From a virus, in the IMG/VR virus record IMGVR_UViG_3300034073_002131, positions 34,029-98,028 of that record: a DNA stretch of 64,000 nucleotides, one strand, 5' to 3'. Both the position numbers and the translations under genes were made by a program. This document shows positions 44,394 through 61,285 of this stretch, one piece after another. The notes beneath the pieces were generated by a model. It was given only the letters and a program-made list of their open reading frames with translations, made no database searches and had not been told where the DNA came from. Within the stretch, counting starts at the first letter, position 1. Each line of letters opens with the position of its first letter.

Positions 44394-44717
44394 ATGACTA
44401 CTGAAAAAACCGTGAATTATACCGCCGAACAAACCCTTAAACTTGTGGCCGACTACAAGGCGGGCACTAGCGTTGAGGATATCGCTAAAGGAATGGGTAA
44501 ATCTGTTCGGTCGATTGTTGCTAAACTCTCACGCGAAGGCGTATACCAGAAAAAGGAATACACAACCAAAACGGGCGAGGCTCCCGTCAAAAAGGATGAG
44601 CATGCCGATATGATCGGCAAGGCCTTGAACCTTAGCGAAGGGGACACCGATTCGCTTGCCAAGGCTAACAAGCGCGCGCTTGCCGCGATTGTGGAATTTA
44701 TCAAGGCTCGGGCTTGA
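44394..44717 (+). CDS. T5 A2-like HTH DNA-binding protein, copy 1
   Basis: NYT.EQT...Y...IA...GKSVRSIVAKLSREGVY; recalled similarity to T5 A2. Confidence 0.7.
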   Translation: MTTEKTVNYTAEQTLKLVADYKAGTSVEDIAKGMGKSVRSIVAKLSREGVYQKKEYTTKTGEAPVKKDEHADMIGKALNLSEGDTDSLAKANKRALAAIVEFIKARA

Positions 44718-44967: not shown

Positions 44968-45033
44968 AGCGTGTTGTATTTTTACAACACGCTGGCGCCA
45001 AAATTATATCATATAATTTTGGCGGGTGTCAAG
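44968..45033 (-). repeat. Cassette: TGTTG palindrome plus hairpin-embedded leftward promoter
   Basis: GTGTTGTATTTTTACAACAC; CGCCAAAATTATATCATATAATTTTGGCG-GGTGTCAAG. Confidence 0.8.
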
Positions 45034-48746: not shown

Positions 48747-49073
48747 ATGGCTGAAAAAACCGTGAACTACACTGCGGAACAAACCGCGAAACTTGTGGCC
48801 GACTATCAAGCCGGTGTAACCGTGGAATCAATTGCGGAAGGGTTGGGCAAATCAGTTCGAAGCATCGTGGCGAAACTGTCACGCGAGGGTGTTTACCAGA
48901 AAAAGGTTTATACCACAAAAACGGGCGAACCCGTTCAGAAAAAGGATATGACAGCCGACGCAATCGGTCGAATCTTGAACCTTTCGGAAAGCGATACCGA
49001 TTCGCTCACCAAAGCGAACAAGCGTGCTTTGAAAGCGATTTTCGAAGCGCTTGCAAACTCGAAACCCCTGTAA
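48747..49073 (+). CDS. T5 A2-like protein, copy 2
   Basis: Highly similar to 44394-44717; start MAEKTVNY. Confidence 0.75.
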   Translation: MAEKTVNYTAEQTAKLVADYQAGVTVESIAEGLGKSVRSIVAKLSREGVYQKKVYTTKTGEPVQKKDMTADAIGRILNLSESDTDSLTKANKRALKAIFEALANSKPL

Positions 49074-49398: not shown

Positions 49399-49402
49399 GG
49401 TC

Positions 49403-49495
49403 TGGGCGCCGATTTTATCATATAAAATCGGGTGGTGTCAAGCGCAGAATTGTAACAATTTGTAACTGTTGCTTTTTTGTGTCAGGGTTTCCCCT
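49403..49495. repeat. Hairpin promoter plus TGTAAC box plus AGGGTTTCCCCT
   Basis: Same modules as 46801-46987. Confidence 0.8.
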
Positions 49496-49546
49496 AATTG
49501 ACACCGGCCCGGCGCGTATGCTATACTAGAAGGTTCGGGGTTTTCT

Positions 49547-49567
49547 AAATGCGAATGATTCTCATTT
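49547..49567. promoter_or_regulatory. Fur box-like site
   Basis: AAATGCGAATGATTCTCATTT; core AATGAGAATCATT vs Fur AATGATAATCATT. Confidence 0.7.
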
Positions 49568-49574
49568 GCACCAA

Positions 49575-49589
49575 GCAAGATTCGTGCCA
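49575..49589 (-). promoter_or_regulatory. sigma54 -24/-12 site
   Basis: TGGCACGAATCTTGC. Confidence 0.75.
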
Positions 49590-49595
49590 GCCATA

Positions 49596-49615
49596 GTTAG
49601 TGAGCGCTTACTAAC
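49596..49615. promoter_or_regulatory. SlmA-binding-site-like palindrome, copy 3
   Basis: GTTAGTGAGCGCTTACTAAC. Confidence 0.65.
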
Positions 49616-49620
49616 CTCCA

Positions 49621-49707
49621 GGGGGGGGGTTGCGCCAGTGCAAAACCTTGTCAAGTGCAAAATCTTGCGCGTGCGCCAGTGCAAAACCTTCAAGTGCAAA
49701 ATCTTGG
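49621..49707. repeat. G9 tract plus near-perfect ~36-bp direct repeat x2
   Basis: TGCGCCAGTGCAAAACCTT(GT)CAAGTGCAAAATCTTG twice. Confidence 0.85.
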
Positions 49708-49845
49708 GGTTGCCTGTGAGTGCTAAACCTTGTATAATATTTATATTGAGTCAGTGATCAAGGCGTCCAAACCCTAAAAAATCCTGACTTGATTCCCAAG
49801 CCTAATCCCTGTATAATATTTATATTGATTGATTGGAGAACCCAA

Positions 49846-50154
49846 ATGACTGACAAAGTAATGAACTATACCCCTGAACAGGTTCAGGAACTGGTCCAGA
49901 AGTATCAGCAAGGCGTTAGCGTTGAGCAACTGGCCGAGCAAGTAGGTAAATCCGTGCGTTCGGTGGTTGCTAAGCTGAGCCGCGAGGGTGTGTATGTGGC
50001 TAAGACTCGGAACACACAGGCGGCCCGAGTCACCAAAGCTGAGCTGGTAGAGCGCATCGCCCGAGTATGCGATCGTAATAGTGAACAGTTTGAAAGCCTA
50101 GAAAAAGCAAATCAGGATGTTTTGACCCGCCTGGTCGAAGTGCTCAAAGCCTGA
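49846..50154 (+). CDS. T5 A2-like protein, copy 3
   Basis: NYTPEQ...GKSVRSVVAKLSREGVY; GGAG SD; two tandem promoters upstream. Confidence 0.75.
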   Translation: MTDKVMNYTPEQVQELVQKYQQGVSVEQLAEQVGKSVRSVVAKLSREGVYVAKTRNTQAARVTKAELVERIARVCDRNSEQFESLEKANQDVLTRLVEVLKA

Positions 50155-50179
50155 TCCCCCGGGGCTGCAAAAATTTACT

Positions 50180-50208
50180 CTTGCGGCCTCCACCTAAACA
50201 GTGTATAA
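50180..50208 (+). promoter_or_regulatory. sigma70 promoter of ncRNA locus
   Basis: TTGCGG-17-TATAAT. Confidence 0.75.
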
Positions 50209-50602
50209 TATTATTTATAGTTTGGGAAGGGCGATATAGATCGCACAAACAGAGTCCACTTAGCCAACTACAAGTGTACATACCTAAGTATTGGACTCAA
50301 GTTTGATTCCCAAACTATCTACTATACTTTATTACTAGGGCGACAGCGGTCACAGCGATATACTACTGCTATGTGATACGTCTTAATTGTGGAGAACTAC
50401 ATGACCGAGCCACAGCCCCACTCTCAGAAAGGCAGCAGTTAGTTACTGCTAGCAGATGGTAATATTGGTCTGTAGTTTTATAATGTCTGGCTCTGCTGGC
50501 GCTTGAGGCTAGTATGGGGTATCAGTAAATACTCCAGAACACAATATAGCGAGCAACCAGACCCTAAACTAGAGCAATCCCAACCATCGTTGCTGCTTTT
50601 CC

Positions 50603-50695
50603 CCTATTCCTCTGATGAGCTCACCGAGAGCGAAACCCAAACCCGAAAACTGGTGCCCCATGCCCAGCAGACTACGGTTTAGGGTCAGGAATTGG
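50603..50695 (+). ncRNA. Hammerhead ribozyme (type I topology), predicted cleavage after C50686
   Basis: Stem I AUUCCU/AGGAAU; CUGAUGA; stem II GCUC/GAGC; GAAA; stem III CCC-AAACC/GGUUU-A-GGG; GUC triplet. Confidence 0.88.
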
Positions 50696-50765
50696 TCCTT
50701 TCACTTCCCGGTCTGCCAGGACGCTAAACTGTGCAGGGACGGCACAACCCTAAAAGTGCCTAGTC

Positions 50766-50797
50766 AAGCCCACCAGTGCAAACTGGTGGGCTTTTTT
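50766..50797 (+). terminator. Intrinsic terminator
   Basis: AAGCCCACCAGT-GCAA-ACTGGTGGGCTTTTTT. Confidence 0.9.
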
Positions 50798-50817
50798 ATT
50801 TGAGGTTAGGCGCCCCT

Positions 50818-50847
50818 ATTATACAGTGCTAAAGCAATATGTGTCAA
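50818..50847 (-). promoter_or_regulatory. Leftward sigma70 promoter facing ncRNA 3' end
   Basis: TTGACA-18-TATAAT then GGGGCGCC. Confidence 0.6.
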
Positions 50848-50972
50848 GACGAAATTTGTAGGTGTTATGACCCTAAACTGTGTTAGTCTTTAATATGGGC
50901 TAGCCCGTATTAAAGTTTTCTTTAATTGACCCTAAGCCGTATGAAGTCTCCACAGGCCACACCCACCAAAAC

Positions 50973-51009
50973 AAAACCCCCAAGACCTATGCGGTTTTGG
51001 GGGTTTTTT
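50973..51009. terminator. Terminator for leftward early operon
   Basis: AAAACCCCCAAGACC...GGTTTTGGGGGTTTT. Confidence 0.7.
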
Positions 51010-51022
51010 AACTTGCAACGAC

Positions 51023-51334
51023 TTAGGGTCGGTTATTCTTGGATAATTCGCGTTCGATGACCTCTAAGACACCTTTATTGACCTTTTCTAGACTTTCAAG
51101 CAGTTCAAGGTTCATGTTGAGCAGCAAGGCAATCCGTTCGATATATTCCGACTTTTTAACCGGGACCTCACCACGCTTGTTTAGGTACTGTTTTTTCTGG
51201 TACACCTCGAGCGAGCTGAGCTTGGCAATTATGCTCCTGGTTGGGACCTGGAGCTCTTGAGCCAGCTCCTCCACGGGGACCCCAGCCCTATATTGTTGTA
51301 CTAGACGGTCAGTGATTTCTTTAGTATATTTCAT
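51023..51334 (-). CDS. T5 A2-like protein, copy 4 (divergent)
   Basis: MKYTKE...Y..G..VE.LA....TRSIIAKLSSLEVYQKK...ESLEK.NK. Confidence 0.7.
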   Translation of the reverse strand: MKYTKEITDRLVQQYRAGVPVEELAQELQVPTRSIIAKLSSLEVYQKKQYLNKRGEVPVKKSEYIERIALLLNMNLELLESLEKVNKGVLEVIERELSKNNRP

Positions 51335-51338
51335 GTTG

Positions 51339-61215: not shown

Positions 61216-61285
61216 AATATTTTAGTCTTGACCCTAAGGCTCAATAACTGTATAATATTTATTCAATAATCAAACTGAGACAATC

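Follow-up and report, generated by a model that had tools for sequence, protein, structure and literature searches.

A probable modular non-coding RNA gene with a predicted hammerhead ribozyme in an uncultured, distantly T5-like siphophage

What does a phage make from a stretch of DNA that lies between a promoter and a terminator and holds only short open reading frames (ORFs)? This question is raised by positions 50215-50797 of a 64,000-nucleotide window (the whole stretch of DNA analysed here, and the right-hand 64 kb of the 98-kb IMG/VR virus record IMGVR_UViG_3300034073_002131), where they sit between a rightward gene block and a leftward gene block. An earlier note, made from the letters alone, had proposed a single structured non-coding RNA of about 580 nt and of no recognised class. 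Our analysis indicates that 50215-50797 is probably a plus-strand structured non-coding RNA gene of an uncultured, distantly T5-like siphophage. The RNA is a short, clade-specific mosaic and belongs to an uncatalogued family of modular phage RNAs carrying a hammerhead; from 5' to 3' it is composed of Domain 1, Insert 1 (with a module that we call Unit 1), Domain 3, the hammerhead, Insert 2 and a terminator.

Folded on the plus strand, the whole RNA reaches -194.8 kcal/mol (z -5.3), and 0 of 100 shuffled sequences fold as well; for the minus strand the value is z -3.1. The consensus fold is rich in G-U pairs and in UA/UG alternation, which are compatible with the plus strand only, and the hammerhead and terminator are likewise functional in that orientation only. 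As proposed, the locus is therefore a plus-strand, ORF-free structured unit with its own promoter and terminator.

All ORFs in the stretch are short (29-62 amino acids, aa) and none is preceded by a Shine-Dalgarno sequence, as the earlier note had also read, and the indels that distinguish relatives at this locus have lengths that are not multiples of three. Together, these features argue that the stretch is not coding. Hidden small protein genes, for which plus-strand ORFs of 62 aa (50615-50803) and 59 aa (50503-50682) would be examples, seem barely conceivable: both ORFs exist, but besides lacking a Shine-Dalgarno sequence, the former starts at an AUG within the ribozyme core CUGAUGA and crosses Insert 2, which relatives lack, and the latter is interrupted in relatives by indels of 1 and 2 nt.

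Relatives were found via neighbouring proteins and comprise eight close contigs (six distinct sequences) and roughly 70 that are more distant. When invariant words were used for further searches, nothing came back beyond the same eight viral contigs and two metagenome contigs, neither of which contributed new sequence. Alignment revealed that the close relatives carry the same RNA minus Insert 1 (50320-50420) and minus Insert 2 (50695-50766), both stretches being missing from all six distinct sequences. The single RNA first proposed thus gives way to a chain of separable modules.

Conserved modules and cassette exchange

Unit 1 (50338-50418, plus strand) is a pseudoknotted three-way junction, formed by P1 (GGGC/GCCC), P2 (GAC/GUC, with a variable hairpin), P3 (UGUGG/CCACA) and a CGG/CCG pseudoknot. 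Across 31 distinct homologues 99.6% of cells are paired, and all 15 tested pairs form in the window copy, in which the junction, the pseudoknot and the conserved GUCUUAAUUGUGG and CCGAGCCACAGCCC strands are present. Five pairs, including the pseudoknot, show compensatory change, compared to 0.4 in shuffles and 0-1 with slid partners. The junction nucleotides are highly conserved and the unpaired ones near-invariant. A covariance model of the unit (R1) scores 75.8 bits (E 1e-18) at 50338-50418, its sole match in the window, and the core is 76-89% identical to the element of many distant relatives. Searching with the exact core pattern recovered 42 viral contigs and 0 of 185,579 species genomes, and the model found no match in T5 or Aeromonas phage AhSzw-1. 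The helix CGGTCA/TGACCG that had defined a "Domain 2" in the earlier note does pair here, but among the 31 homologues only CGG/CCG is conserved, as the pseudoknot of a different, three-way-junction fold; the longer pairing is a window-specific extension of it.

Unit 1 lies in Insert 1, a plus-strand cassette (50320-50420) that also holds a decayed promoter remnant, with TATACT (50323-50328) just 14 nt past TTGATT. Since the promoter is decayed in this copy, Unit 1 is probably co-transcribed with Domain 1 here. In distant relatives the unit stands behind a promoter of its own and opens a long non-coding stretch, in which it is followed by a weaker second Unit 1 copy, in some by a tRNA-Glu (anticodon UUC), and then by the hammerhead and further conserved RNA. 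These loci resemble the window RNA in their position after a small helix-turn-helix (HTH) gene, in the Unit 1 module, in a long-armed hammerhead and in their absence from Rfam; they differ in having usually a tandem Unit 1 pair, in some cases a tRNA, and a long downstream RNA, whereas the window has one Unit 1 and neither of the others. The tRNA-Glu genes lie at L025 4734-4805, L067 4719-4791, L018 4725-4796, L076 4896-4968 and L021 4860-4931; in L025, L067, L076 and L021 they sit 1-10 nt upstream of hammerhead stem I, and an encoded CCA was read in L025. In relatives, a further conserved folded RNA lies downstream of the hammerhead (GAGUAA..CUAGGGA.CCGUCCCUAUAUCC..GUUAAA; L025 4925-5600, L050 5090-5150, L080 4990-5080), and the same regions hold repeated small hairpins, CGACCCUAAGUCG followed by UAAAA; neither the hairpins nor the folded RNA occurs in the window.

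Including its hypervariable hairpin, Unit 1 is 88-89% identical to the copies of L050 and L021, in which the neighbouring protein is 58-69% identical. The hairpin itself is one base apart from that of L050, and the neighbouring protein of that phage is only 58% identical, which points to a recent cassette exchange. By sequence comparison, then, the modules are cassettes that move between distantly related phages, and the near identity of Unit 1 in genomes with such diverged neighbouring proteins shows that the family is built of swapped modules. Insert 2 (50695-50766, plus strand), consisting of two hairpins, is found in this genome only, being missing from all close relatives and having no homologue in any fetched locus; together with the terminator (50687-50797) it gives z -3.6. 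A visual likeness of Insert 2 to the GACCCTAAAC...CTAGTC repeats of relatives was unconfirmed by any search and was set aside.

Unit 1 and the weaker second copy in relatives could conceivably represent a new class of small functional RNA that travels as a mobile cassette, either a novel self-cleaving ribozyme or a high-affinity aptamer for a metabolite or protein, although we regard this as unlikely. The compact pseudoknotted junction, its near-invariant unpaired nucleotides and the tandem copies in relatives would fit such a class, as would the constant company of a hammerhead and sometimes of a tRNA, and different ribozyme classes are known to cluster in phage DNA. If Unit 1 did self-cleave, the single transcript of the window would be turned into three or more defined RNAs. 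The unit is a small, well-defined target for biochemical tests of cleavage, ligand binding and protein binding.

A type I hammerhead with a 46-nt stem III arm occupies 50606-50692 of the plus strand, and cleavage is predicted between C50686 and A50687. Its parts are CUGAUGA (50612-50618), GAAA (50632-50635) and GUC (50684-50686); stem I pairs 50606-50611 with 50687-50692 and stem II pairs 50619-50622 with 50628-50631. The earlier note had read a hammerhead here, and the core is complete: C3 U4 G5 A6 N7 G8 A9, G12 A13 A14, the A15.1-U16.1 pair and a position 17 other than G (H17) are all present, all three stems are in the minimum free energy (MFE) fold, and stem I is open, with both RNA ends exiting there. 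The core is kept in 42 distinct homologues, which show only the variants U7C and C17A. Among 35 aligned homologues, stem II covaries at two pairs (UA:14/AU:13/CG:4 and CG:15/GC:12/UA:3), stem I at one (UA:32/AU:3), and in stem III CG alternates with UG. Among close relatives the identity of the ribozyme is 90-100%, compared to 87-90% for the DNA of the adjacent gene, and by this sequence comparison it is the most conserved part of the RNA.

Domain 3 (50424-50600, plus strand; z -3.4) is a long irregular rod closed by GAAAGGCAGCA/UGCUGCUUUUC and ending in a variable apical hairpin; its identity among close relatives is 69-83%. The helices GATGGT/ACCATC and GTCTGG/CCAGAC that had been assigned to it both recur in a consensus fold of seven sequences. 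Across these seven, Domain 3 and the hammerhead taken jointly pair in 96.7% of cells and contain 12 compensatory pairs, compared to 4.6 +/- 1.5 in shuffles and 1-5 with slid partners. The comparison with homologues that the earlier note had called for thus revealed compensatory changes in Unit 1, in the hammerhead, and in Domain 3 together with the hammerhead.

Domain 1 (50217-50318, plus strand) is a branched hairpin whose 12-bp closing helix begins at the predicted 5' end. Folded alone it reaches -37.8 kcal/mol (z -6.5), and its three previously noted helices, ATAGTTTGGGAA/TTCCCAAACTAT, GAGTCCA/TGGACTC and CTTAG/CTAAG, are all in the MFE fold. It is 89-91% identical in close relatives, which nearly lack variation among themselves. 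Distant relatives carry in this place a separate small RNA of about 125-136 nt, directly after the HTH gene and with its own promoter (L036 4357-4490 and about 28 other loci). This RNA reads AGACAGUCGGGAAGGGC ... CGACUGUCU, is closed by the helix AGACAGUCG/CGACUGUCU and continues into a U tract; it has conserved GGGAAGGGCUUAAUGAAU and CUAGUCUG motifs and compensatory changes in the closing and inner helices, and is absent from Rfam. A covariance model built on it (R2) found no match in the window at E up to 1, and the two RNAs are linked solely by position and a shared GGGAAGGGC word; they are positional equivalents only.

Transcription, processing and regulation

The promoter proposed in the earlier note is present on the plus strand at 50181-50209 and is of sigma-70 type, with a -35 TTGCGG (50181-50186), a 17-nt spacer and a -10 TATAAT (50204-50209). 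The -10 is perfect and the -35 agrees at 3/6 positions, hence the promoter is not listed by a simple scan; in the six relatives the -10 is invariant and the -35 conserved. It belongs to a repeated family, CTAAAC..TGTATAATATT (family D1), with further copies at 49723 and 49802, and transcription is predicted to start near A50217. An inverted repeat read from the sequence, GGGGCTGCAA/TTGCGGCCTC (50163-50193), contains the -35 in its right arm. In the distant relatives L021, L025 and L050 an inverted repeat of other sequence lies in the same place around the -35, so that the symmetry is kept; the repeat may serve as an operator or form a hairpin at the 3' end of the mRNA upstream.

At the other end, the strong terminator that had been claimed was found at 50766-50797 (plus strand): a 12-bp stem (50766-50793) with 7 GC pairs and a GCAA loop, followed by the U tract TTTTTTATTT. 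The stem co-varies in relatives, and in L017 it is wholly different in sequence with its pairing still intact.

Sequences of the family are also present in RNA libraries. Four metatranscriptome runs from different studies contain contigs matching parts of the locus. Riverine and aquatic contigs from two independent studies show the insert-free form of the relatives, with 50319 joined directly to 50424. In run X17, word depth is 22-68 over the RNA compared to 3.4 over the adjacent gene, and in run X5 Unit 1 copies of distant relatives reach depths of 17-31. Contigs of the four runs do not cover 50553-51100; as they stem from relatives, we draw no conclusion from this. Freshwater T5-like phages that have not been cultured frequently carry this RNA family, which also occurs in RNA libraries from lakes and rivers.

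We propose that host sigma-70 RNA polymerase would start near A50217 and stop at the terminator (50766-50797), yielding a primary transcript of about 583 nt that would fold as a chain of independent modules: Domain 1, Unit 1, the Domain 3 rod and the type I hammerhead. A cut after C50686 would release a 5' product of about 470 nt, comprising Domains 1-3 and the ribozyme and carrying at its 3' end a 2',3'-cyclic phosphate enclosed within the ribozyme junction, at the base of stem III, and a 3' product of about 111 nt with a 5'-OH, containing the two Insert 2 hairpins and the terminator. In the insert-free relatives, where the ribozyme abuts the terminator, cleavage would just strip off the terminator hairpin with its U tail; the ribozyme of distant relatives would split the Unit 1/Unit 2 part, with the tRNA where present, from the long downstream RNA. 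Because the ribozyme lies directly before a terminator, we infer that it serves to fashion non-coding RNA ends and not to split mRNAs from one another, and its task would be to give the mature RNAs defined, nuclease-resistant ends. The mature pieces would then persist as stable RNAs with a trans-acting role at an early stage of infection, most likely via protein binding. Of the roles suggested in the earlier note (scaffold, sponge, anti-defence or primer RNA), none is singled out by the present findings.

A second promoter raises the question of whether the unit may instead act in cis. On the minus strand, at 50818-50847, lies a perfect-consensus promoter (TTGACA, an 18-nt spacer, TATAAT, then GGGGCGCC; 12/12 matches), which all close relatives and L064 retain and which is aimed at the 3' end of the RNA. 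Read on that strand, the terminator hairpin is not followed by a U tract, and the promoter, which lies opposite to the strand of the local genes, may give rise to an antisense transcript or serve to trap polymerase. Similar elements are reported at 45027, 45813, 46836, 46915, 48594 and 49436. Within the RNA, CCAGACCCUAAAC (50557-50569, plus strand) in Domain 3 is complementary over 13 nt to the hammerhead substrate strand 50677-50689 (inverted repeat I11, 92% complementary), a possible ribozyme-off pairing. Both arms are invariant in relatives bar one A-to-U change in L010 and L013, which perfects this pairing and breaks a Domain 3 helix; the sequence is suggestive only of an alternative pairing that modulates the hammerhead.

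These two features may keep a cis-regulatory or antisense interpretation alive, in which the locus is a buffer for convergent transcription, or a sense/antisense pair with the RNA from the 50847-50818 promoter, and the hammerhead is toggled by 50557-50569:50677-50689. The position of the locus within a zone of convergent terminators would suit it as well. Yet the minimum-energy structure of the full transcript is the active hammerhead fold with the Domain 3 rod, and the alternative-pairing arms are almost invariant, leaving no covariation to read. A mere buffer would moreover not need elaborate conserved modules such as Unit 1, and the modules of distant relatives are accompanied by a tRNA gene, an arrangement like that of a stable-RNA operon. 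We therefore consider a cis-acting unit a doubtful alternative to a trans-acting non-coding RNA.

Several observations nevertheless weigh against a trans-acting, self-cleaving RNA. The hammerhead falls far below the Rfam threshold, its best match being Hammerhead_HH9 at 17.3 bits compared to the 52 required (E 0.59) and including an insertion of 43 nt in stem III; this low score is due to the long stem III arm, which all copies share, and not to defects of the core. Domain 1 has no covariation support, its relatives being nearly invariant, and its minus strand folds equally well (z -7.3). Support for Domain 3 comes from only seven sequences, and the structure tested was derived from those same seven. 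The RNA-library data are assembled contigs of relatives, which cannot reveal ends, strand or level and could contain DNA. The conserved, perfect minus-strand promoter faces the RNA, so that antisense transcription and a regulatory rather than trans-acting role are possible.

Flanking genes and the phage

The upstream flanking gene (49846-50154, plus strand) encodes a small HTH protein (Pfam GcrA, 29.8 bits with a cut-off of 26.9; PHROG 323, transcription regulator) that is 94-98% identical at the aa level in close relatives. The downstream gene (51023-51337, minus strand) encodes its paralogue (44% identity, E 2e-16), with a weak GcrA/HTH signal. The two are indeed convergent paralogues, as the phrase "two convergent A2-like genes" had implied, but no likeness to A2 was detectable by sequence: T5 A2 (T5.006) gave no BLASTP alignment with the flanking genes at E up to 100, and a tblastn search against 50,697 phage records gave no match at 1e-3. 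The window holds four such paralogous, weakly GcrA-like small HTH proteins (44394-44717, 48747-49073, 49846-50154 and 51023-51337), two of which flank the RNA convergently; they share the motif GVxVExLAExxGKSVRSxVAKLSREGVY, and none of the four shows similarity to T5 A2.

The window is enriched in the motif GACCCTAAAC(Y)GCAG: with at most 1 mismatch it contains 17 hits, compared to 3.6 expected, and copies in both orientations are concentrated around the RNA. The HTH paralogues are candidate binders of this motif or of the RNA. Motif sites include 50560, 50677(-), 50720, 50869, 50928, 51030(-), 43803(-) and 61230, and others occur genome-wide. Some copies constitute a promoter -35 (TTGACC) that is followed after 17-18 nt by TATAAT, as at 61225-61260 and 43803(-), and the 3' strand of hammerhead stem III with the cleavage site is the reverse complement of the motif, here and in distant relatives.

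The genome encodes siphovirus structural proteins (portal, large terminase, fused protease-capsid and major tail protein). Its nearest cultured phages are T5-type Demerecviridae (Aeromonas, Vibrio and Salmonella phages), with 35-39% aa identity over the capsid gene; a DNA similarity search against cultured phages gave no match. The "direct terminal repeat" recorded at 1-126 / 97903-98028 is an exact overlap of 126 bp, such as circular assemblies typically show, and any long terminal repeat of T5 type probably collapsed during assembly. In another contig, the duplicated ends are a strain bubble of 90% identity.

Comparison with known systems

In relation to T5 itself, the locus occupies the place of the long-unexplained, untranslated pre-early/early boundary region of that phage and may bear on early host takeover. 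Like the T5 injection-stop (iss) region (Davison, 10.1101/866236; NC_005859), it is a long, ORF-free, inverted-repeat-rich stretch at the same relative position between rightward and leftward blocks. The proposed hallmark of iss is an ordered set of DnaA boxes, TT(A/T)TNCACA, that are arranged in pairs inside large inverted repeats (10.1101/866236). The window locus differs in having no DnaA-box array and no sequence similarity, and in bearing RNA features (promoter, terminator, ribozyme and G-U covariation): no DnaA box lies between 48321 and 52130, and thus none in 50150-51022, the window total being 12 compared to 9.5 expected.

It could be argued that the repeats act in DNA, as a counterpart of iss or as another protein-binding DNA element. 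T5 has a 1.66-kb non-coding, palindrome-rich region with iss at the equivalent junction of rightward pre-early and leftward genes, and the nearest cultured phages are T5-like; the clustering of GACCCTAAAC here in both orientations would suit a DNA site, and Domain 1 folds equally well on either strand. Against this, besides the missing DnaA-box cluster, a complete, co-varying hammerhead, a promoter and a terminator define an RNA, plus-strand RNA pairing is preserved by G-U pairs and compensatory changes, and the sequence occurs in RNA libraries. Moreover, T5 lacks Unit 1, and a core-pattern scan of its iss stretch found no hammerhead core; the negatives of RF00163 in T5 and AhSzw-1 are uninformative, as this model also fails to find the window hammerhead. 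A purely DNA-level element thus appears improbable compared to a non-coding RNA gene.

Hammerheads that cut long phage transcripts are established (PMC3088659). The type I hammerheads of phages and prophages described by Perreault et al. 2011 (PMC3088659) share with ours the full core, three stems, an open stem I, a phage context and presumed transcript cutting. The window hammerhead is unlike them in its conserved stem III arm of 46-66 nt and in lying inside a non-coding RNA, not between protein genes. Our literature search found no paper describing this RNA family, nor any hammerhead in T5-like phages.

Rfam gave a similar picture for the remaining modules, with no family for Domain 1, Unit 1 or Domain 3 and the hammerhead below threshold; the statement that no known class is recognisable therefore stands, the hammerhead aside. 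A gathering-score scan of the whole window with Rfam 15 returned only two tRNAs, both elsewhere, and E-value scans of 49400-51200 and 50210-50610 (E up to 10) returned nothing credible besides the weak hammerhead match. A 25-bit match to BjrC68 proved to cover two hairpins, one of them the terminator, and was rejected.

GOLLD and ROOL are known examples of rare large folded phage RNAs and were recently found to form RNA-only cages. Could the present modules likewise assemble into a multimer made of RNA alone, or form a scaffold connected with phage tRNAs, as a self-assembling or cargo RNA? The parallels are that GOLLD and ROOL are large phage or prophage RNAs often near tRNA genes, the GOLLD linker sometimes containing tRNAs (PMC12286853), that the tRNA-Glu of our relatives lies inside the same non-coding stretch, and that conserved junction modules are combined with variable rods. 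However, Rfam gave no match to GOLLD, ROOL or another large RNA in the window even at E up to 10, and none to GOLLD or ROOL in gathering-score scans of 18 related loci or in L025 4280-6000 at E up to 5. The window's own RNA is without a tRNA, there is no evidence of conserved inter-molecular contacts, and the free gain and loss of modules would be awkward for a precise cage. Such an assembly is thus a rather remote prospect, and a chain of separable modules in a non-coding RNA gene remains our preferred interpretation.

Taken as known systems, GOLLD and ROOL are large, ornate, functionally unexplained RNAs encoded near tRNAs in phages and prophages (PMC5737381, PMC12286853). The RNA described here resembles them in being several hundred nt long, phage-encoded, ORF-free and multi-domain with pseudoknots, with a tRNA in or near it in relatives; it differs in matching no Rfam model, in its predicted self-cleaving ribozyme and in having modules that are shuffled, gained and lost among close relatives.

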